A stretch of 64,000 nucleotides of DNA from Spirochaetia bacterium (GCA_963675665.1 OY776510.1:3488001-3552000); one strand, 5' to 3'. Positions 23,201-45,560 are shown, counted from the stretch's first letter. Program-made: numbers and translations. The notes: generated by a model from the sequence alone, not told the origin.

Positions 23201-24265
23201 ATGAATATAAAAATAACTTTAAAAAATGATGATTTAATTGAACTCACCTGTCCATATAATACAGAATTAATATCTGTAGTTAAAAAAATACCGGGAAGAA
23301 GGTGGCATCCGGACAGGAAGCTTTGGACATATCCTAATAAAGATAAAAATACCCAATACCTGCTTGAATATTTATATAAAACAGGCTCTTCTTATTACGA
23401 CAAACAGAAAAATCTGCAAAAGAACACTAATATAATTACACCTCTTGAAAAAACTGTAAGATATTTGAGACTGAAAGAATACAGCCCCAAAACAATCTAC
23501 ACCTATAAAAAACATATAAACTGGTTTTTCCGGAGAACCGGTTTGGAGCCGAAGGATGTCCGTACCGAAGATATAATTTTATATCTTGAAAAAATCAAAA
23601 ATGTTGCCGGATGCTCCAGAACTTATGCTGTTCAATGCATAAGCGCTCTGAAATGTTTTTACAGCCGGGGATTTGATTCGTGGTTCAATCCGGCTGACAA
23701 TATTCCGCTGCCTAAGAAAGATCATAAGTTTCCGGATATTCTTTCAAGAAAAGAAATCTCGGATATACTGGAAATAACCGCTAATATTAAACACAAGTTT
23801 TTAATATTATTGATCTATTCCGCCGGCCTGAGGGTAAGCGAAGCTGTCAATTTAAAAATAAACGATCTGGATTTTGACAGAAAAATGATTCATATCAGAT
23901 CAGGAAAAGGTAAAAAAGACAGGTATGTAATGTTATCGGAAAAAGCTGTAAAACTATATTTAGATTACAATAAGCAGGTAATGTTACAAAACTGGCTCTT
24001 CCCAGGTCAGGATTATAACTCTCATTTAAGCATACGATCAGCACAATCAGTATTTATCAGAGCAACTGAAAAAACTGAAATACAAAAAAAAGTCAGCATA
24101 CATTCATTACGTCATGCATTTGCTACACATCTACTTGAAGACGGTGTAGATTTAAGATACATACAGGAGCTTCTGGGGCATAAAAGCAGTAAAACAACAG
24201 AAATATATACCCATGTAACAAAAGTAAGTATAAACCGCCTGAAAAGCCCTATAGACAGATGGTAA
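23201..24265 (+). CDS. Tyrosine recombinase (integron-integrase-like, lacking the I2 insertion)
   Basis: SAGLRVSE (R), GKGKKDR (K), HSLRH, LLGH, TEIYTHV (Y); SAM-like YSPKTIYTY domain; extra N-terminal KKIPGRRWHPDRKLW domain. Confidence 0.93.
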   Translation: MNIKITLKNDDLIELTCPYNTELISVVKKIPGRRWHPDRKLWTYPNKDKNTQYLLEYLYKTGSSYYDKQKNLQKNTNIITPLEKTVRYLRLKEYSPKTIYTYKKHINWFFRRTGLEPKDVRTEDIILYLEKIKNVAGCSRTYAVQCISALKCFYSRGFDSWFNPADNIPLPKKDHKFPDILSRKEISDILEITANIKHKFLILLIYSAGLRVSEAVNLKINDLDFDRKMIHIRSGKGKKDRYVMLSEKAVKLYLDYNKQVMLQNWLFPGQDYNSHLSIRSAQSVFIRATEKTEIQKKVSIHSLRHAFATHLLEDGVDLRYIQELLGHKSSKTTEIYTHVTKVSINRLKSPIDRW

Positions 24266-25952: not shown

Positions 25953-27515
25953 ATGTCAGAAAAACTAATTCTAGATGCATTAATTACAAGAGAAGATTTT
26001 GAAATCTCTGACGAATTAGATATACCCACAACAGATATGAAAGATACTTTGTCAATTCAAGATTTAGAATATAATTCTTTTTTCTATCGTGCATTAAGAA
26101 AGCCTGATTTTCAAAGAGAGACTAGTGATTGGACTATTGAAAAAACATTTCAATTTATTGAAAGTTTTATTAATGGAGATTTAATACCTGCAGTTATTTT
26201 GTGGAAAAATAGTTCAGGTTTAATATTTGTAATAGATGGTTCTCATCGAATCAGCGCTTTATCTTCATGGATAAATAACGACTATGGGGATGGTCGTTAT
26301 TCAATAGAATTTTATAATAATCAAATTTCAAACCAACAGAAAAAACAAGCCCAAACAGCAAGAACAATAATTGATGCTACAATAGGTTCATATGATTCAT
26401 ATAAAAATATTGATACAAATCTAAAAGAAGAAAATTTAACGAAATATAAAAAGGCGATGCAGTTAGGTTCTACAGCTATTCAAATTCAATGGGTAAAAGG
26501 TGATTCTAAAAAAGCAGAGGAGTCATTTTTTAAGATAAATGAAAAAGCTTCTCCAATTGATAATACTGAAAAGAAGATTATTAAAAATAGAAACAAACCA
26601 ATTGGGATAGCTGCAAGAGCAATCATGAGAAGTGGTAGTGGATATAGATATTGGTCCAAATTTGATAATAAAAGAAAAAATGAAGTTGAGCAGCTTGCAA
26701 AAGACATAAATGATATGCTTTTCTTACCAGAATATACAACCCCTATTAAAAGTTTAGATTTACCGATTGGCGGAAAGATCTTATCGAATAAAGGTTTAGC
26801 ACTAGTTCATGATACAATAATGATATGTAATAATTTAAATGAAAAAGAATTAGAGAGAATAGTGGATGACAATGATGGGATAAATACTGTTAAATACTTA
26901 AAACGAACAAAAAGACTTTTATTGAGGATTAATAGTCAACATCCAGGCTCTTTAGGATTACATCCAGTTATATATTTTTATTCAATACGTGGTGTTCATA
27001 AAGTAGCCTCATATTATGGAATACTTGATTTTATTAATTATATAGAAGAAACGAATAGGTACAACGATTTTATAGAAATACGCGAGAAGTTTGAAAGAAT
27101 CTTATTAGATTATGAATTCCTGATACAACAAATAGTACGTCATGATAGGCAATCTATAAATGGATATAAAAATATTAAGGAATATTATTCTTTAATTATG
27201 GACTATTTATTACAAGGTAAAGAGATTGAGGAAGTAATTAAAATGATTCTTGATACTAAGAAGTTTTCATATCTTTCTATTGCAATTACTAAAATGGAAG
27301 AAACTAAAGCTAAAAAATTCTCAAGAGATAAAAAATCGATAATTTTTATCAAGGAAGGTTTAAAAACAATTCCTAAATGTGGTATTTGTGGCGGGGCGTT
27401 ACATTCAAAATCGATATCAATTGATCATATAGAAAGAAAACAGGATGGTGGAATTTCAATGATAGATAATGGCCAATTATCACATCCATATTGTAATACA
27501 ACATATAAAAATTGA
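25953..27515 (+). CDS. Cassette 2, gene 2: DUF262 (ParB-like) plus HNH nuclease, GmrSD-like
   Basis: KPDFQRE..W, VIDGSHRISAL, FFKIN; C-terminal CGICGG..SIDHI..NGQLSHPYCN. Confidence 0.85.
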   Translation: MSEKLILDALITREDFEISDELDIPTTDMKDTLSIQDLEYNSFFYRALRKPDFQRETSDWTIEKTFQFIESFINGDLIPAVILWKNSSGLIFVIDGSHRISALSSWINNDYGDGRYSIEFYNNQISNQQKKQAQTARTIIDATIGSYDSYKNIDTNLKEENLTKYKKAMQLGSTAIQIQWVKGDSKKAEESFFKINEKASPIDNTEKKIIKNRNKPIGIAARAIMRSGSGYRYWSKFDNKRKNEVEQLAKDINDMLFLPEYTTPIKSLDLPIGGKILSNKGLALVHDTIMICNNLNEKELERIVDDNDGINTVKYLKRTKRLLLRINSQHPGSLGLHPVIYFYSIRGVHKVASYYGILDFINYIEETNRYNDFIEIREKFERILLDYEFLIQQIVRHDRQSINGYKNIKEYYSLIMDYLLQGKEIEEVIKMILDTKKFSYLSIAITKMEETKAKKFSRDKKSIIFIKEGLKTIPKCGICGGALHSKSISIDHIERKQDGGISMIDNGQLSHPYCNTTYKN

Positions 27516-27658
27516 TAATTAATAAAAAATGTATTGGAATCATGAATTATCTACATGATTAATTTGAAAAGGAGTTAAGCATATAGAAAATGATTATAGG
27601 GTCAAATACATCCATGTATTTGACAATTAAGTATTAAAGCAACCATGAAAGAAACGGC

Positions 27659-27806
27659 ATCTAACAAGCAAATATGTAGCTCCGGCCATTCGGCCTGCGC
27701 CCAAATTGAAGCTAACGGAGAAGCGGAGCAGGACAGTCGGGTTTGCTCATTGACAAAACACTCCTTTGGCGGCGCTTCAACTTTACATATTCGCGGAACG
27801 TTATGT
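27659..27806 (+). repeat. attC-like site 2 (148 bp)
   Basis: ATCTAAC-aa-GCAAATATGTA ... TACATATTCGC-ggaac-GTTATGT. Confidence 0.85.
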
Positions 27807-27955
27807 GCAATTACCCCGCCCCTTTTTTGGGAGAAGAGATTGTATATAGGCAAACTGGCATCCGTGCCAGTTTGGAAATGTATAAACACACATCGCATCG
27901 CATAAAAAGGTGAGATTATAGAATTAAAATTTATTAGTATGCATAACAAGGAAGC

Positions 27956-28837
27956 ATGATAATGGAATGGTCTGAAAGAATGAATATGGCAATCGATTAT
28001 ATTGAAGATAATATTAAAAATGAGATACTGATTTCAGAAGTAGCAAATATAGCCAATTGTTCATCATTTCATTTTCAGCGAATGTTTTATGCAATCATTG
28101 GGATTACGCCTGCTGAATATATCAGACGACGAAGATTGACTTTAGCAGCCTCTGATCTCGCTGCTGGGAATGAAAAAGTCATTGATATTGCTCTGAAATA
28201 TGGTTATGAATCACCAAATGCGTTTACTAGAGCATTCCGGAATATGCATGGTATTAATCCACGAGAAGTGCGCAGCTCAGAGGTTAAATTATCGGCATAT
28301 AATCGTGTTTCTTTTCATATCGAAATCAAAGGAGGAAATGATATGGATTATAAAATAGTCGAAAAACCGTCTTTTGAATTGGTAGGGAAGAGTAAAAACT
28401 TTACACATGAAAACTTTTTTAAAGAAGGCCCTAAATTCTGGAAAGAATACGTATGTACAGATGAATACCAAGAGCTTTGGAATTTGACAAATGGTAGATG
28501 GGGAGAGGTGACTGATTCCCCTCTGATGTCTGTCTATTTGCCTAGTGAAAAAAATGATGAATCATTTATTGATATTCTTGGTGTTGAAAAGTCAGATAGT
28601 TTTAATAATCATAAATTTGAACTATTTCAGATACCAGCTGCTACCTATGCAGAATTTAATTGTACTTATCAGACTTCTGCAAAAATGAATAAATTTATTT
28701 ACGGTGAATGGCTTCCTTCAACCGGTTATGAAAGGGATACTCAAAAAGCTGATATTGCAGCTTATTTCCCAGTAGCTTTTATGTCAACAAAAGGGATGGG
28801 GGTACGATGGTGGATACCAGTGGTTAAGAGAAAGTGA
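27956..28837 (+). CDS. Cassette 3: AraC-family regulator with GyrI-like effector domain
   Basis: MEWSERMN.AIDYIE, SSFHFQRMF, EYIRRRRLTLAA, KYGYESPNAFTRAF. Confidence 0.92.
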   Translation: MIMEWSERMNMAIDYIEDNIKNEILISEVANIANCSSFHFQRMFYAIIGITPAEYIRRRRLTLAASDLAAGNEKVIDIALKYGYESPNAFTRAFRNMHGINPREVRSSEVKLSAYNRVSFHIEIKGGNDMDYKIVEKPSFELVGKSKNFTHENFFKEGPKFWKEYVCTDEYQELWNLTNGRWGEVTDSPLMSVYLPSEKNDESFIDILGVEKSDSFNNHKFELFQIPAATYAEFNCTYQTSAKMNKFIYGEWLPSTGYERDTQKADIAAYFPVAFMSTKGMGVRWWIPVVKRK

Positions 28838-28909
28838 AAGAGATTTCAAGCAAAACATCGTGTTTTGCTTGAAGAATTCTCTTAAGAAAGACCGGGGCGG
28901 GGAAACTGC

Positions 28910-29001
28910 ATCTAACAAGGGTTACACGCTCCGGCCATTCGGCCTGCGGGCTGCGCCACATTCGGCTGCGCCGAACGTCGTGTAACCCTGGAACGTTATA
29001 C
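28910..29001 (+). repeat. attC-like site 3 (92 bp)
   Basis: ATCTAAC-a-AGGGTTACACG ... CGTGTAACCCT-ggaac-GTTATAC; nearly identical to site 4. Confidence 0.9.
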
Positions 29002-29079
29002 AAAATGTTCCCGCTAAGAGGAAGACGCCCGGACCTCCGGCCGACGGGCTAAAAGAGAGTTTAAGATTAAGGAATCAAG

Positions 29080-29859
29080 ATGGAAAAAGAGTTTACCGGA
29101 AATGAAATTGGATTAAATGGAGAAGCTCAAATAAAGATAGCTATCAAAACTATCTCTGATCTTGGTGGGAAAGCAGAAATGAAGGATTTATATTCTGCTT
29201 TAGAGAATGAAATGCGAGGAAAGAAACTCTCCAATCAAGGAAAGGCAAGTTTCAGATTTTTTGTGAATAAGGTCGCTGTAAAAGCAGGATTGATTTATCC
29301 GTATGACAAAAATAATCCGGGGTGGATGTTGACTCCGGCTGGTAAAGAATATCTGAAGAATGAAGAGATTAATGAAATAACAGTAAATACGGATACAAAT
29401 GAAGAAGAGGTAACTTTATCTAATTCGGCAAGAGGTTTAGCTTTTGAATTATACGCTCATGATTTTCTAAAGACATTATATCCAAGTTTTGTGTGGCATC
29501 ATCAGGGGCTTTATAAAACAACTGAAAGAGGTTTGGATTTTATAGGAGATAAACTTGGGGATCAAAATTCAGATGTTCGAACCATTGGTGTTCAGGTTAA
29601 GTTTCATAAAGAGAAAAATTCGCCAACTCAGATTGAATGGTTAAAATTTCTATCTGGTTGTTTTGCGCGCAGAGTAGATTTAGCAATATTTATCACAACA
29701 GGTAGATTGTCGAGTGCTCAATATCGAGAGGCGAGGGAATCAAATGTTATAGTTATTCAAGGAAAGGATGAGATAACAAGGATTGCAAAACAGAATAATT
29801 TAAAGAAGTTTGATTTATTTGGAAGTGAAGAGGAAGGAGAGGCTTCAGAAGAAGGATGA
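29080..29859 (+). CDS. Cassette 4: Mrr-like restriction endonuclease
   Basis: N-terminal winged helix (GWMLTPAGKEYL), then FE, GLD, GVQVK, IFITTG..S Mrr_cat motifs. Confidence 0.82.
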   Translation: MEKEFTGNEIGLNGEAQIKIAIKTISDLGGKAEMKDLYSALENEMRGKKLSNQGKASFRFFVNKVAVKAGLIYPYDKNNPGWMLTPAGKEYLKNEEINEITVNTDTNEEEVTLSNSARGLAFELYAHDFLKTLYPSFVWHHQGLYKTTERGLDFIGDKLGDQNSDVRTIGVQVKFHKEKNSPTQIEWLKFLSGCFARRVDLAIFITTGRLSSAQYREARESNVIVIQGKDEITRIAKQNNLKKFDLFGSEEEGEASEEG

Positions 29860-29921
29860 AGAGTTAAGATGTTCAAGCCTTGACTCCGCCGTGCGGCTTG
29901 AACGAAGAGCGGGAACACTTC

Positions 29922-30013
29922 GTATAACAAGGGTTACACGCTCCGGCAATTCGGCCTGCGGGCTGCGCCACATTCGGTTGCGCCGAACGTCGTGTAACCC
30001 TGGAACGTTAGCT
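29922..30013 (+). repeat. attC-like site 4 (92 bp)
   Basis: GTATAAC ... GTTAGCT; body differs from site 3 at two positions. Confidence 0.9.
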
Positions 30014-30105
30014 GAAATGCCCCGCTAAGAGGAGAACGCCCGGACCTCCGGCCGACGGGCTAAACTGAATAGGAAATTAATAATAAATTAAAATATGGAG
30101 TTAGT

Positions 30106-30954
30106 ATGAAGAAGTTATCACTAGTATTTGTATTTCTAATAGCTGTGAGTAGTTTATATGCAGAGGATATAGCTTTAATTGAAGATAATGTGCTTGATTT
30201 ATTTAATAGTTACAATCCTCAATATAAAACAATTGGTCCAAAAATCTTGAATATCCCTGAAGGGCAAATTGATTTTTACAAAATGAAAATAGATACTGAT
30301 GAAAGTGATCTAAAATTCTTAGTAATTAAAGATAAGTACATTATAGGGGTCTTGCAAAATGTTAATGGTGAAGATCAACTTTTAATTGATGCAAATGGTG
30401 ATAATTTATTAGATTATTATTCTCAAGAATTAACAATACCTTATTGGGTTGTAGCATCAGAGTGTAATAATCACAGTAATAATGAATATAATTTGGATAT
30501 TTATTTTGATGAAGCTATTGAGATTTTTAATGGAGAGGTGAACCCATATTCATCCGGTTTGCATTATCAGTTTACGCAAAAATTATTAGTTTCAGTTTCA
30601 GCACCGGAAACTCCTAATCGAGATATAATTTACGCTTTATATGATTATTACAATCATGGCGACCAATATCCATGGGTTGCTTTACAAATAATTAATTATA
30701 TAAGCAAGACTACTTACGATAGATATAAAAAGGATAATCTATTATTTTACTTACATACTATGGAATCCTTAATTAATTTTGGATATTCAGATAGAGCGAT
30801 ACCATTGATGGAAGAGTTAGTAAAGAAATACCCAGAATTTATTCCAGGGTTAGTGTATAGATGGCAATTAGAAAATGATGCTTCGAAAAAGGAGAAATAT
30901 TATAAAGATCTAAAAACCAATTATCCAAATCATTGGATAGTGAAATTAATTTAA
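30106..30954 (+). CDS. Cassette 5: exported hypothetical protein with TPR-like C-terminus
   Basis: Signal peptide MKKLSLVFVFLIAVSSLYA; GGAG RBS; helical repeats ..KYP.. / ..NYPNHW. Confidence 0.75.
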   Translation: MKKLSLVFVFLIAVSSLYAEDIALIEDNVLDLFNSYNPQYKTIGPKILNIPEGQIDFYKMKIDTDESDLKFLVIKDKYIIGVLQNVNGEDQLLIDANGDNLLDYYSQELTIPYWVVASECNNHSNNEYNLDIYFDEAIEIFNGEVNPYSSGLHYQFTQKLLVSVSAPETPNRDIIYALYDYYNHGDQYPWVALQIINYISKTTYDRYKKDNLLFYLHTMESLINFGYSDRAIPLMEELVKKYPEFIPGLVYRWQLENDASKKEKYYKDLKTNYPNHWIVKLI

Positions 30955-31034
30955 TGAAATATTATAGATTTGAAAACTTTGGTAGCCAGTCCTTGACTCC
31001 GTCGCACGGACTGGTTTAAGAGCGGGGACACTTC

Positions 31035-31342
31035 AGCTAACAAGGGAATATAAGCAGCGCCCATTCGGGCTTGGCCTTCGGCACATTTTTATTTTTCTGA
31101 ACATAGGCTTTATCATCGGCATTTAACACATGAAATGCAGTAGTCAACACCTTTGACACGGTTCTGGCGGAGACATTCGCTGATCGCTCATTCCAGAACC
31201 GCGCCAACCCTCGAAGACTCGGGACGGTTTCGCTACTGATTTCGTCGTTAAATGCACGGGATTTTTCAGTTTCGGGAAAATGATGGGTGTGATAGAATCA
31301 ATGAGAAAAATAAAAACGTCTTATATTCCCGGGGCGTTATGC
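31035..31342 (+). repeat. attC-like site 5, giant (308 bp), with nested inner site at 31121-31253
   Basis: AGCTAAC-aa-GGGAATATAAG ... CTTATATTCCC-ggggc-GTTATGC; TTTTTATTTTTCT/AGAAAAATAAAAA arm; inner ATTTAAC...GTTAAAT. Confidence 0.8.
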
Positions 31343-31576
31343 GACATTCTTGGAGGAAGAAGATAGAAACATTGTTTGGGATGATTTTGATAGTTTTTAG
31401 CATTTTACTCATTAAAAATTATTTTATTTCATATGGAAGGGCTATAAATAAATTCCGTGATATAATGTTATTTACAGTTTTAAATGCTGTAATTGAATTC
31501 TCAAGCAAGATCAACCAACTTGTTTTTAGGAACTTTACGCAGAAATTTAAGATTGAATTAAAAATAAAGGACGAAC

Positions 31577-32212
31577 ATGAATTCTACAGGCCAATATTAC
31601 TACAATGCCAGATGGTATGACCTAAATCTGGGTAGGTTTACCACAGAAGACCCGATAAGCGACGGCCTAAACTGGTACGCTTACGCTAATAATAATCCGC
31701 TGAGGTTTGTTGATCCGACCGGGTTAATAGATGTTGAATCTGATATAGTTGAAACGGAAACATACGTCGATGTTGATACTGATTCTCTCATGACTGGTGA
31801 TCCTATGGATATCTTTGATGATCCAGAAGTTGCAAAAGCTGATACTTTAGCTCAATTAGAAGATGTAGTAGATGAAACTGTAGAAATGATTTCCTTTACT
31901 ACCACTTTGGGTGGACTTTTGCCAGATGAAGAAGTTTCAACCACATTATTTTTTATTGGTGTAGGGACCGACCTTTATTCTACCCTTGTCTCTGAGGATA
32001 TGTCAGGGCTTGAATTAGGGATAAAGATAGGACTTGGTGTTGTTGGACTTATTTCAAGTCCTGCTGTTGCAGTGCCCTGTGTTTTAGCTACGATGTATGT
32101 AGGCTCGGCTTTTGATCATTTAGATGATGGACCTATTACAACAACTGATAATATGTCTGATTTATCTGATTTTCTTGGTGGTACTATAGATTGGGCAATG
32201 GATAATCAATAA
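31577..32212 (+). CDS. Cassette 6: Rhs-associated core plus C-terminal toxin-like domain
   Basis: TGQYYYNARWYD..LGRFTTEDP...NWYAYANNNPLRFVDPTGL. Confidence 0.88.
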   Translation: MNSTGQYYYNARWYDLNLGRFTTEDPISDGLNWYAYANNNPLRFVDPTGLIDVESDIVETETYVDVDTDSLMTGDPMDIFDDPEVAKADTLAQLEDVVDETVEMISFTTTLGGLLPDEEVSTTLFFIGVGTDLYSTLVSEDMSGLELGIKIGLGVVGLISSPAVAVPCVLATMYVGSAFDHLDDGPITTTDNMSDLSDFLGGTIDWAMDNQ

Positions 32213-32514
32213 TGAAAATACTTTTTACAATCTATTTTTGGATTTATTATACCGGTTTAAATATCAATAAAACCTTAGGAATACCAAAAAGACTATCAAG
32301 CTCTTATACTGGTGCAGGTCTTCTTACAGGATTATCTGTATTCATACCTATTTTTGTTTTGTTGGATTATTTCTTACCAATTAAATTAAGTAAATTACCT
32401 ATTTATTTTTGCATACTAATAATTATTATTATATTCGAAAAGATTTTAAAAAAGGTAAGTATAAATAAAAGTGGTGTCGAAGTAAAAGAAAAGATTGAAG
32501 ATTTAATAAATTAG
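32212..32514 (+). CDS. Cassette 6: small membrane protein, putative immunity protein
   Basis: TAATG overlap with the Rhs gene; hydrophobic segments. Confidence 0.55.
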   Translation: MKILFTIYFWIYYTGLNINKTLGIPKRLSSSYTGAGLLTGLSVFIPIFVLLDYFLPIKLSKLPIYFCILIIIIIFEKILKKVSINKSGVEVKEKIEDLIN

Positions 32515-32760
32515 ATCGTTTTTTAGTGTTTATAGATTTTATTTCTTTCATAATTATTTTTTCATGGATATTTCTAAGTTTTTATTTATGGCATTTTATA
32601 ATAATAAATTCTATTTGAAAACAAAATAGATTACCTTCCGCCGGAATAGGGCGTTGGAGTAGTCCCGGTGAAACCGGGCTACTCAACTATCCATTCCGGC
32701 TTCCAAGATAAATAGGGTGGAATTAAAGGTTGTATGATAAAATGTTAATAAAAGAACGTC

Positions 32761-32901
32761 GCATAACAACGGTTAAGCGGCTCCGGCCAGTCGGCCTGCG
32801 CCCAAATTGCCAGGAAGGGATTAGATAAACTTGAGGCAGTTAATAAGTAAGAGTTTATGTTCAGCTTTCCTGTCAACTTCGCTTAACCCGGAACGTTATC
32901 T
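32761..32901 (+). repeat. attC-like site 6 (141 bp)
   Basis: GCATAAC-aac-GGTTAAGCG ... CGCTTAACC-cggaac-GTTATCT. Confidence 0.85.
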
Positions 32902-32967
32902 GAAAGTTTTGGTTTTTGGTGATTCTATATAGAATAGTCATTCATGGCTATTCTTGTAAGATTTATC

Positions 32968-32996
32968 TTGACTAAGGTTAGCATGTAGGCTAACAT
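32968..32996 (+). promoter_or_regulatory. TA promoter with overlapping palindromic operator
   Basis: TTGACT-17bp-TAACAT; GTTAGC-N6-GCTAAC palindrome. Confidence 0.7.
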
Positions 32997-33002
32997 GAGA
33001 GT

Positions 33003-33365
33003 ATGAGTCGAAAAGTGATTTTCTATACAACAGATACAGGAAAATGCCTTGTAGAAGAATTTCTCAATAATCTTGAGGTAAAAGTTGTTAAGAAGATTGT
33101 TTGGACGTTGAAAATAATTGAGGAGATGGATTTAGTTCCAAAGACATATTTCAAGAAGTTGTAATCTACTGATGGAATATGGGAGGTCAGAATTAAAGTT
33201 GGAACAAATATATACCGGATCTTTAGTTTTTGGGATAAGAATAATTTGATTGTTTTAACCCATGGGATGATTAAGAAGTCTCAGAAAACACCAAAAAATG
33301 AGATCAAAATAGCAGAAAGTTATAAGAAGGAATATTTCAGGAGGAAAGAAAATGAACCTCAATGA
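33003..33365 (+). pseudogene. Cassette 7: RelE/HigB (Gp49-like) toxin with premature stop
   Basis: MSRKVIFY...YFKKL*STDGIWEVRI..YRIF..LTHGMIKKSQKTP; in-frame TAA at 33162. Confidence 0.88.
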
Positions 33366-33624
33366 TTATGTAGATAAAAGAATAAAGAATGAAGGAATCT
33401 CAAAAGAAGAGTTTTGGGATGGCTATGAAGATTATAAGATAGGGATATTCTTAAAAGAGGCAAGAGAAAAAAGTGGGTTAACGCAGGAAGAGTTAGCAAA
33501 TCGAATCAATACAACTAAAAGTGTAATCTCAAGGATGGAGAATCATTCTGAAGATATAAAATTATCAACTATTGAAAAAGTAGCAAAAGCCTTAGGAAAG
33601 AAGGTTAAAATCGCAATCGTTTGA
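33352..33624 (+). CDS. Cassette 7: HigA-like XRE antitoxin
   Basis: REKSGLTQEELA...KSVISRMEN...LSTIEKVAKALG. Confidence 0.9.
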   Translation: MNLNDYVDKRIKNEGISKEEFWDGYEDYKIGIFLKEAREKSGLTQEELANRINTTKSVISRMENHSEDIKLSTIEKVAKALGKKVKIAIV

Positions 33625-33684
33625 TTCTACACTAAAGCCCAAAAGACATCCTTGTCTTTTGGGGATCAAATCACCAAAACCTTC

Positions 33685-33779
33685 AGATAACAGGGGCTAT
33701 GTGCTTCGTCGCTATACGCTCCTCGGGCTACGCCACATACGGCTATCGCCGTACGTCACATAACCCCGGGACGTTAGAT
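33685..33779 (+). repeat. attC-like site 7 (95 bp)
   Basis: AGATAAC-a-GGGGCTATGTG ... CACATAACCCC-gggac-GTTAGAT. Confidence 0.9.
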
Positions 33780-33912
33780 GCAATGAGCCCGACAAGAGGA
33801 AGACGCCCGGACCTCCGGCCGACGGGCTAAGAGGTAAATATATGGAATATGAAAAATTATTTTTTGATAAATTAAGTCAAAGCTACAATAATTCTTCCTA
33901 TTAGGAGAGCGA

Positions 33913-34632
33913 ATGTGGTATGAGAAGACCTATATAAATGGTTCTATGAAGTGGATTAAAATATTTAATGATGAAAATCAAGGACTCAAAGTTGAGGATT
34001 GGGAATTAGATCGCGCCTGGGAGGCTGTAATAAAAGAAGATCCTGATTATATAACAATTGAATTGATGTATGATCAAGAATTTGCTTTCAGTTCTGCATT
34101 TTTCTTTCGTGCAAATATAAAGAATCCAAAACTTCAAACATTTTTTTGTCCAAAGTGTTTTAAATATTTAGATACTCATGAAGAAATGTTTTTTTTCAAT
34201 AATCCAATATTAAGGACAAATAAAATAATAAAATCAAAATTTGAAAATGTTAATTTTAAAAATAAGGCATCTGCCGAAATTCAAGCTTATATACTCAATG
34301 AAAATACTTTTAAAAATTGTGGATTATGGGGTATGCACGGTTGTACTTTGTTGTCTTATTTTATTGAAGAAGAGCATTATGATGTGATTTTTCAAAGTAA
34401 TAATGAAGGATTTGTATATCTATGGAAATATAAAGGAATTCCACAAAGATTTAAATTAGAATTAAATGAAAAGGAAAGCAGATTTGATGTAATAGATAAA
34501 AATGAGATTGTTTACTCTGAAAGCCTTGAACGTTTTTTCACAGCTAAAGGGTTTTATAATAGATATTATGAGATAGTAAGCTATTTAAATAATTTTAAAA
34601 AATTAAATTTAGAGGATAAGAACGATATATAA
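33913..34632 (+). CDS. Cassette 8: hypothetical protein (true start may be 33842, frameshifted)
   Basis: 239-aa ORF between two sites; an out-of-frame ATG with GAGGT RBS lies at 33842. Confidence 0.65.
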   Translation: MWYEKTYINGSMKWIKIFNDENQGLKVEDWELDRAWEAVIKEDPDYITIELMYDQEFAFSSAFFFRANIKNPKLQTFFCPKCFKYLDTHEEMFFFNNPILRTNKIIKSKFENVNFKNKASAEIQAYILNENTFKNCGLWGMHGCTLLSYFIEEEHYDVIFQSNNEGFVYLWKYKGIPQRFKLELNEKESRFDVIDKNEIVYSESLERFFTAKGFYNRYYEIVSYLNNFKKLNLEDKNDI

Positions 34633-34715
34633 GAACCGAAGTTTTGGTATTTTTTAAGATCAATGAAGAATCCAGACCTAACTCCGTTGAACGGTCTGGA
34701 TGTTGGGCTCAAAGC

Positions 34716-35016
34716 ACATAACAAGGGAATATAAGCAGCGCCCGTACGGGCTTGGCCTTCGGCACATTTTTATTTTTCTGAAGTGAGTGAAGATTATCGG
34801 AATTTAACAAGTCAAATGCAGTTGTCGCCGTCTATTGTCACGGTTTTAGCAGAGACGTTTCGCGCTGATCGCGCTACACTCTAAAACCGCGCCAATTCCT
34901 TTCGCTTCGCTCCAGGATCGAGGGCGCAACTGATTTAGTCGTTAAATGCACGGGATTTTTCAGTTTCGGGAAAATGATGGGTGTGATAGAATCAATGAGA
35001 AAAATAAAAACGTCTT
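34716..35016 (+). repeat. attC-like site 8 (giant type), truncated by IS3
   Basis: Homologous to 31035-31342; ends at AAAAACGTCTT where the IS begins; inner site at 34802-34947. Confidence 0.82.
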
Positions 35017-35046
35017 TGAACCGCCCCGGGAATCCCGGAGACTGTT

Positions 35047-35955
35047 TTAGTTGAGTCCGACAACTCTGGCCGAATCTCTAACACTTTCATAATACATCAT
35101 CTCAAACTCTTTTGGGGGAATATTTCCAATCGGTTCAAGAATTCTTCGGTTGTTAAACCAGTCCACCCATTTCAGAGTTTCATATTCTACTTCATCTATA
35201 GATTTCCAGGGACCTTTTCTCCAGATCACCTCCGCTTTATATAAACCGTTTATTGTTTCCGCCATTGCATTATCATATGAATCTCCAACACTTCCGACAG
35301 AAGGTTCAATGCCTTCTTCAGCCAATCTCTCAGAATATTTGATAGACAGGTACTGGCTGCCGCGGTCGCTGTGATGAATCAATTTATCTTCCGGCGCTCG
35401 AGCAAAGATTGCCTGCTCCAAAGCATCCAGAGTTAGTTCGGCACTCATTGATCGCGATACGCGCCAACCGACGATCATCCGTGAAAACACATCTGTTACA
35501 AAGGCTACATATACAAATCCTCGCCAGGTTGCCACGTAGGTGAAATCTGCAATCCATAACTCGTTCGGCCGGGTAGATTTGAATTCCCGATTTACTAAAT
35601 CCAACGGCCTGTCTGTTTTCTTATCAGGAATCGTCGTTTTAATACCCTTGCCGCGAATAACTCCTCTAAGACCAAGATCCTTCATGAGTCGAGCTACAGT
35701 GCATCTTGCGACATTAAAACCCTCACGCTTCAGTTGTCTCCAGACTTTTCGGACTCCGTAAACTTTGTAGTTATCATCCCAGACACGCTTAACTTCCGAC
35801 TTCAATTTTTTATCAGAGTGATAGCGTGCAGGAGCCTTACTTGGATCTTTTTCTCTGGATTTCATTTCGTAATAAAAAGACGGAGCAATCGGTATTACTT
35901 TACAGATTGACTCGACTCCATAATCTTCTCTATTTTTATCAATGAAATTAATCAT
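35047..35955 (-). CDS. IS3 OrfB transposase (DDE)
   Basis: [37 protein letters not shown]. Confidence 0.95.
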
Positions 35956-36275
35956 TTCCTCTGTGGGCGGTCGAGCTCCGCCTGTGCGAAATATGCTGAA
36001 GCCTTTCTGAGTATCTCGTTAGCTTTTCTTAATTCCCTGACTTCTCGCTCCAGTTCTTTAATTCTGGTTTTCTCATCAATAGTCAGACCTTCTCGCTTTT
36101 CTGAATCCATTTCCGCTTGACGAACCCATCGGCGCAATGTTTCCGGGGTGCAGCCAATCTTGTTTGCTATTGATTCTATGGCTCCCCATTGGGAGCCGTG
36201 CTATTCAGTAGTCTCAAATACCAACCGTACTGAACGTTCTTTTACTTCTTTTGAATACCGGGTTCTTTTGTCCAT
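35952..36275 (-). pseudogene. IS3 OrfA with premature TAG
   Basis: [48 protein letters not shown]; stop at 36201-36203. Confidence 0.85.
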
Positions 36276-36325
36276 AACATAATCCTCTCATATAATTATG
36301 TCTCTGGTAAACCCGGGGCGGTTCA

Positions 36326-36654
36326 ACCATCAGAACAGGAATATGATGGAGATTTTGTAGAGTTTGCGTATCCGATAAATTACAGGAAGCGGTTCGTAAA
36401 TAATCGAGGCTTTATCAGTTTTAATGGAACACGCTATTTTGTCGGGAATCCATTTGGAGGATACAATATAGGAGTTCAGCAGAATGAAGAAGGGCAACTA
36501 AATGTCTGGTTTGGAGACTCTCTTCTTGGATATTTTAACCAGGAAAGTTTGTTGCTGGTGCCTGAAAAGCAGTATACACTAATGAAAAGAAAAAGGAGAA
36601 AAGTGTTACCGATGTCGTGACACAAATCCGTTACCTATGTCGTGAAACCGGACC
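36326..36654 (+). mobile_element. IS481-family remnant (3' end of transposase and right end)
   Basis: Frame ending ..NVWFG...RKVLPMS* followed by tandem GTTACC.ATGTCGTGA repeats typical of IS481 ends. Confidence 0.7.
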
Positions 36655-36693: not shown

Positions 36694-36722
36694 TTGATAA
36701 AACTTAAAAGGTGTTGTACAAT
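36694..36722 (+). promoter_or_regulatory. TA promoter
   Basis: TTGATA-17bp-TACAAT overlapping TGTACA/TGTACG motifs; ATG 7 nt downstream. Confidence 0.6.
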
Positions 36723-36728
36723 GTACGT

Positions 36729-37121
36729 ATGAGTATATTGGTAGATGCAAACATATATTTAGCAGTAATTCTCGATGAGCCGGAAAAAAGCAAAATAATA
36801 GAATTAACTCAGGAAGATGATCTGATATCACCGGTTGTTTTACCTTTCGAAGTGGGAAACGCACTATCTGCAATGTATAAAAGAAATAGGTTAGATAAAA
36901 GTCAAATAATTGATTGTTATTCAATATTTCAGAAAATACCAGTGCGTTTGATTGATGTTAATATTCAAAACTCATTAGTAATAGCAGCAGATTATGGAAT
37001 ATATGCTTACGATGCATATTATTTGGAGATAGCAAAACGATACAAATGCAGTTTGTTGAGTTTGGATAATAGAATGAAAGAAGTGGCTAAAGATTTAGGA
37101 GTCCACTTATTGGAGGTCTGA
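36729..37121 (+). CDS. Cassette 9: VapC PIN-domain toxin
   Basis: ILVDANI, FEVGNAL, YAYDAYYL, LLSLD. Confidence 0.92.
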   Translation: MSILVDANIYLAVILDEPEKSKIIELTQEDDLISPVVLPFEVGNALSAMYKRNRLDKSQIIDCYSIFQKIPVRLIDVNIQNSLVIAADYGIYAYDAYYLEIAKRYKCSLLSLDNRMKEVAKDLGVHLLEV

Positions 37122-41949: not shown

Positions 41950-42108
41950 GAAAATTACTGGGACATCAAATAATAATAGGTGTATATTTGTTGCGTACGG
42001 ATAAGCGTACGGGGATGTGGAATGAGTAGTATAAATGTAACAAATGCCAGAAAAGATCTTTACAATTTAGTACAAAGGGTAAATTCAACGTAAGCGGTAA
42101 TTCTTACC

Positions 42109-43662
42109 CTATGCCTTAATCAGCCCAGGAGTCAGGTTGAACGGAAGCAGTGCTTCATAATCAGCCGGTGTTTTGCAATTTGGAAGCTGTCTGAAAACGT
42201 AGTAGAAATAATCATAGACCGAGAGGTTCTGCATTTTAGCTGATTCAACAAGGCTGTACAAAATTGCTGAAGATTCGGCGCCGTGTTCTGTATCGGAAAA
42301 CAACCAATTCTTCCTGCCGATCACAAAAGGCCGGATTGCGTTTTCGGCAATGTTGTTAGACGACGTAAGCAGCGGGTCTTCCAAATACAAGTTTAACTGC
42401 TTCCAATTATCCAGCGTATAGGCAATAGCTTTCCCGAAGGCAAGTGTAGGCGGCGTTGCCGCTGCATATTGTGTCAGTAATTCAAATAAGGATTTCAGAA
42501 TCGGAGAAGCCCTGTTCGTCCGTTGTTTTTGAAACCCTTTCTTAGAAAAATCAGCTCTTAAATCTTCAAGCTCAAAAAGTTTCTTAATCAATTCGAGTAT
42601 CTGTTTTGCATCCGGAGATTTAGACAGCTCCCAATACTTGTAGAAATATCTACGGGCATGAGCCCAGCACAAAACATGACGAATAGATTTATTTCCTTCA
42701 TCGCTTAGTTTTTTCAATGCAGTGTGATAAGCCTCATAATCATCAGTCTGCAGCCAGCCGGAATATTCTTGCAGGAAATCATACGGAACTTTATGAGAGC
42801 GGCTTGTTTCATACTGAAACACAACAGATTTTTTATCAGTCTCTCCACCAAGAAATACCCACATCCAGGATTTATCCTGTGCTTTACGACCTTTTTCTTT
42901 CAAAACCTGCACCCGGGTTTCATCAGCATTGATTACTGGACCGTTTTTAATATTATCTTTAAGCAGCTCATATAGCGGCTTGCATCTTTCAGCGCATTTA
43001 ATTGCCAATGTGCTCAGTGTTGCACGTGGAATATCCGCACCTATCGCATTCAACCTCTTACTCTGTCGATAAAACGGCAGCGCATATTCAAACTTCTCAT
43101 TTATAATCCATGCAAGCAGGCTTTCATCGGCAATACTTCCGGAAATGAGGTGTTTAATCCCTTCTGCTGTCTGTACTCCGGATGAATCATCAGTTGTTCC
43201 TTCACAATTTCGGCAGACATATTTTTTCTTTATCTCACGTCTGACGACTACTTTCGCAGGAACGATGCAGAGTCGTTCAGATACATCTTCACCTATACAA
43301 ACCTTCTCGGTACCACAGGCACAGGTTTTATCTTCTTCATCGATATCGTATTCAACAATCTCGCGAGGCAGGTCTTCAGAAAGCGCTTTTCTTCCCGAGT
43401 TCTTTCGAACTGTTTTTGTGTGGGCTTTTACTTCAAGGGTTTCTGATTCTATTTCATCCTGCTGCTCAAATGCGGAATCTTCTGCTTCGTTGAAAAGGGA
43501 CGCCTGCTTCTTATCTTCACTGGTAAATTTCTCAGATTTTGTTCCGAAGTGAAGAGTCTGCAGGAGGTGTACCAGTTCTTTCAATTCGGTAATCTGATTA
43601 TCCTGATTTTGGACTGTTTGTTTGAGTTGAGCAATTTCGTTAAGCAAGGCTTCAGTACTCAC
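42109..43662 (-). CDS. tnpC: IS66 transposase TnpC
   Basis: FGTKSEK, ADET, CWAHARR, NNIAENAIRP..IGRKNWLF. Confidence 0.95.
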   Translation of the reverse strand: MSTEALLNEIAQLKQTVQNQDNQITELKELVHLLQTLHFGTKSEKFTSEDKKQASLFNEAEDSAFEQQDEIESETLEVKAHTKTVRKNSGRKALSEDLPREIVEYDIDEEDKTCACGTEKVCIGEDVSERLCIVPAKVVVRREIKKKYVCRNCEGTTDDSSGVQTAEGIKHLISGSIADESLLAWIINEKFEYALPFYRQSKRLNAIGADIPRATLSTLAIKCAERCKPLYELLKDNIKNGPVINADETRVQVLKEKGRKAQDKSWMWVFLGGETDKKSVVFQYETSRSHKVPYDFLQEYSGWLQTDDYEAYHTALKKLSDEGNKSIRHVLCWAHARRYFYKYWELSKSPDAKQILELIKKLFELEDLRADFSKKGFQKQRTNRASPILKSLFELLTQYAAATPPTLAFGKAIAYTLDNWKQLNLYLEDPLLTSSNNIAENAIRPFVIGRKNWLFSDTEHGAESSAILYSLVESAKMQNLSVYDYFYYVFRQLPNCKTPADYEALLPFNLTPGLIKA

Positions 43663-43700
43663 ATAAGAATTTTACCACGGTTAAATTCGAGTGTGAAGCC

Positions 43701-44045
43701 CTAAACGCGGGAATAATTTAATTGCTTATGCGCTTTAAAGAAATCTATTCCATCAAGCAGCATCTTCAACTCTTCGAACTTTATCTCCCTCGCGTCTTCT
43801 TCCGTTTCCGGCCAGGGGAACTTATTCTTTTCAAGTCTTTTCTGCCAAAGACAGAATCCGTTCCGATCCCAGTAAACGATTTTAAGCAGCTTTCTTTTGC
43901 CGTTGCAGAATAGAAACAGACTTTTTGAGAACGGGTCGTTCTGCATTATATTCTGAATCTGCAGGCTCAGACCGTTCACACCTTTTCGTAAATCAGTTTT
44001 CCCGGGTCTGACGAAGTAACGGTATTCTGAGTAATCGATAATCAT
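43701..44045 (-). CDS. tnpB: IS66 accessory protein TnpB
   Basis: TDLRKGVNGL, LKIVYWDRNGFCLWQKRLE..FPWP. Confidence 0.95.
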   Translation of the reverse strand: MIIDYSEYRYFVRPGKTDLRKGVNGLSLQIQNIMQNDPFSKSLFLFCNGKRKLLKIVYWDRNGFCLWQKRLEKNKFPWPETEEDAREIKFEELKMLLDGIDFFKAHKQLNYSRV

Positions 44046-44341
44046 TCGAGCTCCCCGATTACTTTAAGAACTGATTTCAGCCCGGCTTCATCAAATCCGG
44101 CAGTTATTGATATTAAGAACTTTTTGGTTTTTATAACTATTGGGGCGGCTGAGAAGATTCCATTTGGTTTTATTTCAACAACTGAAGAACTTCCGGGTGC
44201 TTCCTGATTGCCAATAATTTTCCTGTTTTTATAAAACGTGTTTGGATGAATCCCGATCTCTTTACAGAACTCTAAAATCGTCTTACCGCTTTGCTGTTGT
44301 TGCTCAATGACTTCTTCCCAATTATTTATTACCTTTCGCAT
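44042..44341 (-). CDS. tnpA: IS66 accessory protein TnpA
   Basis: W...QQQSGKTI.EFC.E.GI...TFY HTH. Confidence 0.85.
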   Translation of the reverse strand: MRKVINNWEEVIEQQQQSGKTILEFCKEIGIHPNTFYKNRKIIGNQEAPGSSSVVEIKPNGIFSAAPIVIKTKKFLISITAGFDEAGLKSVLKVIGELE

Positions 44342-44651
44342 TTATTTCCTCCTGGTTAATAATTCCGGAGGATAATACATTTTTATATTTTAGCAAGAAG
44401 GTAAGAATTACCGCTTACAATTCAACTCATGAACCTGTAGAAATCACCGGCAAAGAATCTAATGCGATTTTGATAGGTGAAGAAGATTGGCGTAGCATAC
44501 AGGAGACACTCTATCTTTCTACTGTCCCTGGTATGAGAAAATCAATAATCGAAGGCATGAAAACAAAAGCGAAAGAAGTCCTAAAAATCCTTAAAGAAGA
44601 ACCATTTCAAGATTATCCGCCTTATGAGAAACTTATTGGTGAGGTGAAATC

Positions 44652-45432: not shown

Positions 45433-45560
45433 AACCAACTAGGGAATATCCGATAAGCCAAAACGAGCTTGGTAACAGGCTATATTTTTCTCAAATAAGT
45501 CATTATCATCGACATTTAACAAGGATTTGATTAGAGGTCATCACTCCACTCCGCTGTGAA
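45433..45560 (+). repeat. Degenerate remnant of a giant-type site (site 17)
   Basis: AGGGAATAT and TATTTTTCT....TTATCATCG.CATTTAACA match site 5; right boundary approximate. Confidence 0.55.

Follow-up and report, generated by a model that had tools for sequence, protein, structure and literature searches.

Integron integrases are described as recognising the structure of their attC recombination sites more than the sequence (PMC2095811, PMC5027507) and as accepting varied attC sites (PMC2095811). In the description given by PMC5027507, these sites span 57-141 bp and combine RYYYAAC and GTTRRRY boxes, an unpaired central spacer, a bulged L stem, a branched apex and a G|TT crossover point in arrays that adjoin intI; on the L'' arm, opposite the AAC triplet of the bottom strand, bases spaced by 6 bp are extrahelical, usually G and T when read on that strand. 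An additional domain is given as the defining characteristic of the integrases themselves (IntIs; PMC9668308). Group IIC introns associate with attC (PMC7923331), and integrase-mediated cassette insertion at ordinary genomic sites, termed attG, has been reported (bioRxiv 10.1101/2022.09.11.507474). Cassettes are thought to be bound to one site type per host array, and their crossing between systems is poorly understood. Here, a stretch of 64,000 nucleotides from the genome of a Spirochaetia bacterium (GCA_963675665.1, OY776510.1:3488001-3552000; the window) is examined for two giant recombination sites, at positions 31035-31342 and 34716-35016, in which an attC-like hairpin lies nested within a hairpin site of another class.

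The window carries one cassette array (array A, 24.7-45.5 kb), whose own site type is termed attC_A, and the same genome (G000, contig C1) carries a second array at C1:4.418-4.524 Mb (array B), whose hairpin sites, those of a canonical integron, are termed attC_B. The giant sites, referred to below as composites, are probably bilingual, that is, used by the recombinases of both arrays (IntA and IntB), so that the two arrays would share cassettes. An earlier note, made from the sequence of the window, had proposed a dual-specificity site for a second, perhaps canonical, integrase, and sequence comparison supports this proposal through IntB, an array of 51 sites, opened forms and a cassette present in both arrays. 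No description of a nested or dual attC site was found in the published literature, judged mostly from titles and abstracts, nor was a precedent found in print for a nested site that would link two cassette systems. Related genomes are labelled G002, G003, G004, G005, G008 and G010, the last two of which belong to another genus. The complementarity of the 7 nt beyond the GTT of one site to the 7 nt before the AAC of the next is called the cassette rule. The composites and their parts are as follows:

31035-31342, plus strand: composite site, copy 1, complete, 308 bp, an outer attC_A around an inner attC_B (motifs, fold, cassette rule).
31035-31120, plus strand: left outer half of copy 1, with R''_A at 31037-41, L''_A at 31044-54, a small GC branch, the 5' half of an AT-rich stem at 31083-98 and a spacer.
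31121-31253, plus strand: inner attC_B of copy 1, with ATTTAAC at 31121-31127 and GTTAAAT at 31247-31253 (nhmmer E 7.5e-37).
31254-31342, plus strand: right outer half of copy 1, with a leader of array-B type, the 3' half of the AT-rich stem at 31304-19, L'_A at 31320-30 and R'_A with GTT at 31336-38.
34716-35016, plus strand: copy 2 of the composite, whose right outer half is truncated (halves match copy 1).
34802-34947, plus strand: inner attC_B of copy 2, with the inner motifs at 34802-34808 and 34941-34947 (nhmmer E 1.8e-27; fold).
35017-36326, minus strand: IS3-family insertion sequence (IS), 1310 bp (ALIL frameshift pseudoknot at 106 bits, rve and HTH_21 domains, terminal inverted repeats).
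45435-45530, plus strand: decayed composite, distal end of array A (read by eye; weak nhmmer match of the left outer half, E 0.68).

The positions and motifs that the earlier note had assigned to the complete site and to both nested elements (31035-31342; 31121-31253; 34802-34947) were read in the sequence as it had given them. Copy 1 is bounded on the outside by CTAAC (31037-31041) and GTT (31336-31338), and its inner site is 93% identical to the array-B site at C1:4521437-4521564. The right outer half contains a conserved TAnAAT box (TGATAGAAT, 31290-98) that lies inside a leader common to array-B cassettes. The homolog announced at 34716-35016 is present, with 96.9% identity to copy 1 in the left half and 100% in the right half over the parts present and with an inner part of another attC_B subtype, but it is not a complete site, being cut by the IS3-family element at 35016/35017. 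The sequence past this element does not resume the site, for which reason part of array A has probably been lost there by deletion. The element has terminal repeats similar to the L'/R' end of array-A sites and occupies precisely this part of copy 2; it may have a preference for sites of this type. Of the relic that had been placed near 45433, a weak trace was detected, consisting of pieces of the left half and the first approximately 25 nt of an inner site, recognised by eye.

A 321-nt stretch around copy 1 folds as nested hairpins, with -58.1 kcal/mol on the bottom strand (z -6.68; top strand z -4.80), and none of 100 shuffles folded as well. The folding of both copies, which the earlier note had set as a check, gave the same three-way shape for the two inner elements (bottom-strand z -5.01 and -4.52). 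At approximately 304-315 bp overall, the composites are more than twice as long as the attC range of PMC5027507, and, unlike in long attC sites, their apex is not a mere branched loop but a second complete site of another class. In having foreign DNA inside an attC they are comparable to group IIC-attC introns and to insertion sequences in attC; unlike those introns, the insert is a recombination site of the resident integron and comes with neither reverse transcriptase nor intron RNA.

When the whole genome was searched with the 308-bp site, its middle third alone was matched at dozens of places on the minus strand of C1:4.418-4.524 Mb. A search for the attC_B family (two rounds of nhmmer) returned 55 hits in G000, which, together with the neighbouring integrase, are placed as follows:

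C1:4525299-4526318, divergent from array B: IntB, a full-length integron integrase (TIGR02249, 392.5 bits; cut-off 265).
C1:4.418-4.524 Mb: array B, 51 attC_B hits.
Window composites: 2 nested attC_B hits.
3.923 Mb: 1 solo attC_B site.
3.039 Mb: 1 partial attC_B site.

IntB adjoins array B, approximately 0.9 Mb from the window, and has a segment of about 46 residues that is absent from IntA. The earlier note had let its proposals hang on whether the inner repeat occurs independently and whether its pairing is conserved; 53 occurrences lie outside the nested copies, and the pairing is conserved. Across an alignment of 54 family members (A1), the consensus structure comprises 33 pairs, 19 of which show compensatory changes on both sides, such that the compensatory changes first seen in the inner arms of the two window copies are real. 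In this alignment, 96.9% of cells are paired versus 27.9-45.4% in slid controls, in which the 3' pairing partner was moved by 1-3 columns, and the covariation score was reached by none of 500 shuffles. Two columns of the 5' arm are always unpaired, a G (column 21) and a T (column 28) six base pairs apart, as at 31137 and 31144 in the window; thus an unpaired base of the kind described earlier is indeed conserved, although there are two of them rather than one. Further, AAC and GTT are invariant or nearly so across the 54 members, and the inner elements of both composites carry the classical RYYYAAC inverse core at the 5' end and GTTRRRY core at the 3' end, in the form of ATTTAAC and GTTAAAT.

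Neighbouring array-B sites score 5.90/7 (n=50) in the cassette rule versus 3.43/7 for non-neighbours (n=2551). In a cassette that is repeated approximately seven times in array B, the site subtype 3' of the cargo is constant and the one 5' of it is variable, indicating that an attC_B moves together with the cargo that precedes it, as is the case in classical integrons. Array B belongs to the classical sedentary integrons, and together with IntB it fits the canonical description. The described sites closest in kind to the inner element are the Vibrio VCRs, the long attC sites of sedentary chromosomal integrons (approximately 120-130 bp, with branched, variable terminal structures). With the description in PMC5027507 the inner element has in common the two boxes, the unpaired central spacer, the L stem, the branched apex, the G|TT crossover point and the place in arrays beside intI. 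Its bulges agree with that description in arm and 6-bp spacing but not in identity, as its bottom strand would bulge C and A, the complement of what is described there; this identity apart, the element belongs to the attC class.

The outer part of the composites has the anatomy of an array-A site, and both window copies stand between cassettes, in places where a simple site of array A would be expected. Composites and simple array-A sites have in common the first approximately 50 nt (R'', L'' and a GC-rich side branch) and the last approximately 25 nt (L', a five-base spacer and R'), and bulged bases are missing from both. The layout of the outer part is accordingly of A type: the 5' end has xTAAC, a spacer of 1-2 nt and an L'' of 11 nt, the 3' end has L' followed by a spacer of 5 nt and GTTA, and there is a GC-rich branch. 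At the apex, simple A-type sites have a short hairpin, whereas composites have, in order, the AT-rich stem, a spacer of approximately 20 nt, attC_B and a leader of approximately 60 nt that is collinear with the leaders of about eleven array-B cassettes up to the TAnAAT box. Across the aligned outer parts, 89.7% of cells are paired versus 39-55% in slid controls, and 3 of 11 L-box pairs are changed on both sides between the two genera, which is modest evidence for the outer stem given that it comes from only two lineages. The outer boxes comply with the cassette rule, at 6.00/7 between consecutive sites (n=6) versus 3.83/7 between non-consecutive ones (n=36) in G000, and at 5.73/7 (n=11) versus 3.76/7 (n=110) in G010. 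The outer R boxes of copy 1 score 7/7 with each neighbour; over the junctions formed by composites, the scores are 7/7, 7/7 and 4/7 in G000 and 2/7, 5/7, 6/7, 7/7, 7/7 and 5/7 in G010. Another A-type site, t7 of G010:C4 (L053:22640-22812), is 165 bp long and has an extended AT-rich stem; the insert at its apex is another one, about 85 nt in length and lacking an attC_B. A-type sites may accept further kinds of insert at this position.

The TAnAAT box, with a TG upstream, keeps its position between two diverged types of right half. A consensus promoter scan of 30900-31700 found no site of sigma-70 type in the right half, only the TAnAAT box with its upstream TG. On the strength of its conservation, the box may be an outward promoter.

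Array A consists of short open reading frames (ORFs) that alternate with imperfect hairpin sites, which start with xTAAC and end with GTTAx, as seen from repeat families and a motif scan. It is headed by the following gene, which lies on the same strand as the cassettes:

23201-24265, plus strand: IntA, a Xer-like tyrosine recombinase (Pfam Phage_integrase and SAM-like domains, N-terminal HARP-like stretch).

IntA scores 220 bits with the XerA-type model NF040815, which is at the cut-off of the model, and 190.8 bits with the integron-integrase model TIGR02249, which is under the cut-off of 265 and comes from a match in two stretches. When IntA and IntB are aligned, IntA has 46 gap positions where IntB has its extra segment; the additional domain specific to IntI is thus absent from the integrase of array A. 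Orthologs of IntA with 53-63% identity were found in all five related genomes searched. Those of G010, G008 and G003 adjoin A-type or composite sites, and they head the A-type arrays of these genomes in the same direction as the cassettes. More distantly, IntA-like proteins (approximately 36-60% identity) occur in many bacterial and archaeal genomes of many phyla, the nearest named one being in a Spirochaetaceae genome, and several distant homologs precede co-directional arrays of TAAC...GTTA hairpins, for example in a Desulfitobacterium (7 sites) and in an Ignavibacteriota genome (10 sites). Array A resembles a canonical integron in its layout of short ORFs and imperfect hairpins with TAAC...GTTA ends and differs from one in that IntA lacks the additional domain, A-type sites lack bulges and IntA is co-directional with the cassettes. 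By its sequence features it would therefore be integron-like in its working and yet outside integrons by the test of the defining integrase domain.

Simple sites of the two types are kept apart in the two main arrays. Both attC_B of array A in G000, and all four in the 40 kb examined of the G010 array, are nested in composites. No complete simple A-type site was found in the 108-kb array B of G000, where the only good match to R''_A is the left half of a split cassette, described below. We infer that IntA acts on A-type and IntB on B-type sites, because each recombinase keeps adjoining its own array, because the simple sites segregate between the arrays, and because IntA without the insertion goes with A-type sites without bulges, while IntB and its sites have both.

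Composites are not confined to the window. Among the 11 genomes of the family that were compared with the site, 7 match it at E<=1e-10. Array A of G010 contains four complete composites, of which three are consecutive, and that of G008 contains one; they measure 308-315 bp and lie, in both genomes, downstream of an IntA ortholog with 53% identity. The spacers have diverged between the two genera while the composites have stayed intact, and the inner parts of different composites are of different attC_B subtypes, with pairing kept in all of them.

The composite also occurs opened at the inner GTT. At site 4440401 of array B in G000, the G|TT point is directly followed by a right outer half that has 96% identity to the window copies and L'_A and R'_A at its end; next come a cargo ORF, a diverged left outer half that starts with R''_A, and the following attC_B. 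The same arrangement is found in the array B of G010, which adjoins an IntB ortholog (three complete forms and one right half only), and once in G002, with partial or decayed versions in G004, in G005 and at 4479.6-4478.4 kb of G000. At least six different cargos carry the split form. This layout is what a cut at the inner GTT would yield, either from a circle bearing a composite or from a segment between two composites. A DNA search with the split cassette of G000 against the relatives matched site modules only, with no cargo in common.

Gene cassettes themselves appear to have moved between the two arrays through the nested sites. A comparison by tblastx of 17 segments, comprising all cargos that adjoin composites or lie in split cassettes, returned one strong pair (97.3% over 299 aa), formed in G010 by two cargos, one next to composite d of array A on its upstream side and one inside a split cassette of array B. 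The block common to the two arrays measures 1601 bp at 98.4% identity. It starts at the outer-type GTT that opens the array-A cassette, takes in cargo, R''_A, left half and inner attC_B, and ends within 11 nt around the inner GTT; past this point comes the right half of composite d in array A and the next cassette in array B. Both kinds of crossover point thus bound the differences between what appear to be two recent copies of one cassette, and from such junction patterns each GTT would be exchanged by its own recombinase. Preceding the array-B copy is a right half of another variant than that of composite d, which argues against the simplest route (a circle formed by IntA and integrated by IntB), here rejected; most simply, the inner sites of two composites would have served to excise the unit, or the sequence preceding it would have been exchanged later. 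In G000, a cassette with toxin-antitoxin-like genes (32931-33689, array A) has 76.4% identity over 763 bp to an array-B cassette that lies between decayed outer halves.

A mechanism can be proposed on this basis. As a single strand, the composite would fold hairpin-in-hairpin and present two crossover points on one strand, with the inner hairpin and the AT-rich stem bringing the distant outer boxes together. Cutting at the outer GTT, IntA would move the cargo with the whole composite as an array-A cassette. With a cut at the inner GTT, made either on a free circle or between a pair of composites, IntB would deliver a unit of right half, outer GTT, cargo, left half and attC_B into array B. The outer halves, needless once in array B, would decay there. 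Two adjacent split cassettes would rebuild a composite and offer, in principle, a path of return. Cassettes could in this way cross between arrays whose simple sites stay apart. Insertion of the attG kind is a possible origin, in which a cassette boundary would have been put at a secondary site, the apex of an array-A hairpin; unlike in the attG work, the outcome here is a conserved nested site common to two arrays.

A broader reading, which is held more tentatively and put somewhat short of an even chance, is that this spirochaete family harbours two cassette systems that differ in mechanism, one classical (additional domain, bulged sites) and one Xer-like (neither), with the nested sites as an evolved adaptor that makes one gene pool of the two and carries an outward promoter. 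The promoter would drive the next cassette in array A and, once the composite is opened into array B, its own cargo. A natural hairpin-within-hairpin site of this kind would be a new route of passage between cassette platforms. Moreover, the contrast between IntB and its sites, which have domain and bulges, and IntA and its sites, which have neither, bears on the role of both in the recognition of single-stranded sites. Searches that assume attC sites of 57-141 bp may miss such junctions or split cassettes wrongly.

Several observations weigh against the use of the composites by both recombinases. What ties IntA to A-type sites is their conserved adjacency, and IntB alone could conceivably act on both site types, since integron integrases accept varied attC sites. 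The covariation of the outer stem comes from two lineages only, the AT-rich stem hardly varies (12 of 16 pairs invariant), and three composite junctions score low in the cassette rule (2/7, 4/7 and 5/7). In G010, the right half that precedes the cassette copy of array B is approximately 81% identical to that of composite d over attC_B plus right half, and t7, the site now upstream of the array-A copy, is not a composite. Finally, a third, small cluster at C1:3916300-3923000 (minus strand) mixes A-type and B-type sites with no nesting; it contains a solo attC_B with leader, a truncated attC_B and at least two A-type sites, and there is no integrase nearby.

This mixed cluster near 3.92 Mb is the main observation in favour of some cross-reactivity and hence of a first alternative, in which IntB recombines both A-type and B-type hairpins, IntA has another job, and the composite amounts to two nested sites for the same enzyme. 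The structure-led recognition and the tolerance attributed to integron integrases (PMC2095811, PMC5027507) would allow it, as would the fact that both site types begin with xTAAC and end with GTTAx. It is nevertheless judged unlikely: simple A-type and B-type sites are segregated between the main arrays of G000, and attC_B enters array A of G010 only in nested form; bulges are absent from one site type and kept in the other, in step with the segment that IntA lacks and IntB has; IntA orthologs remain, co-directionally, at the heads of A-type arrays in G010, G008 and G003; and even the distant homologs of the Desulfitobacterium and Ignavibacteriota genomes precede co-directional TAAC...GTTA arrays.

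Equally improbable in our view is a frozen accident, in which an array-B boundary was trapped in an array-A site and copied passively, one or neither of the sites works, and cassettes reached both arrays by homologous recombination. The near-invariant AT-rich stem and right half would fit recent copying as well as function, copy 2 is broken by an insertion sequence and the distal copy decayed, and outer halves decay once in array B. Passive copying is harder to reconcile with composites that are intact in two genera despite diverged spacers, or with inner parts that are of different attC_B subtypes and have all kept their pairing. Likewise, the 1601-bp block and the 96% copy of the right half end at GTT crossover points, not arbitrarily within repeats, and the split form is carried by at least six different cargos, with one matching cargo pair only.

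That the inner element or the whole unit is a structured noncoding RNA, or a miniature transposable element whose AT-rich inverted repeats target array-A sites, the earlier note having listed a structured ncRNA and a parasitic mini-element as its other options, is highly improbable: the strong fold with covariation, the 13-16-nt inverted repeat that bounds the insert and the conserved TAnAAT box would suit either, but the family delimits cassettes beside a canonical integrase and obeys the cassette rule, no Rfam family matched in the window at the gathering threshold except the ALIL of the insertion sequence (the site itself gave nothing better than E 0.97 in a search up to E 10), and there is no associated transposase, no target-site duplication and no dispersed copy, with outer halves restricted to cassette arrays (nhmmer against G000 placed each half at three positions with E<=0.001 plus the weak relic, none of them outside the arrays). 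An origin as a group II intron was also considered and rejected, since a reverse transcriptase is absent and Rfam gave no hit to intron RNA domains. For bridging the two arrays, the use of the composites by both recombinases thus remains the preferred reading.

Two further searches concerned the composite. A scan of metagenomes for the point where the AT-rich stem meets L'_A found two contigs of identical sequence with no site context around the match, which is taken as chance. Joints in the assembled contigs of four public runs lay in repeated site sequence with short sides of 20-38 nt, could not be assigned to this locus and were left unused.

The cargo of array A includes defence-like and toxin-antitoxin-like genes (25953-30954, 33004-33624 and 36711-37121), whose products comprise a GmrSD/HNH protein, a Mrr-type endonuclease, an AraC/Cass2 regulator, a helix-turn-helix (HTH) antitoxin-like protein and a PIN-domain protein. 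Some cassette leaders carry a GC-rich motif of 23 nt, found in the window at 29027-29049, 30038-30060 and 33805-33827 and at 12 more places in C1 (10 in array B and 2 near 3.92 Mb). It is letter-identical in 14 of the 15 copies, stands approximately 30 nt 5' of start codons, and occurs in both arrays and in relatives. An Rfam search with the motif and the cassette leader gave no match; the motif may be a regulatory element of the 5' untranslated region or a protein-binding site.

Another small module is located directly 5' of copy 1:

30986-31017, plus strand: trailer hairpin (the same module stands 5' of many array-B sites).

A pattern search found 16 copies of this hairpin in the genome, at 29873, 30986 and 38511 in the window and at 13 places on the minus strand of C1. 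It is approximately 30 nt long and stands 10-25 nt 5' of many sites of both arrays, and the copies that were placed are in or near cassette arrays; it looks like a cassette 'trailer' module common to the two. The arrays also have in common an IS66-family element of 2329 bp, which is 100% identical between 42090-44418 of the window, within array A, and C1:4471405-4473733, in a gap of array B.

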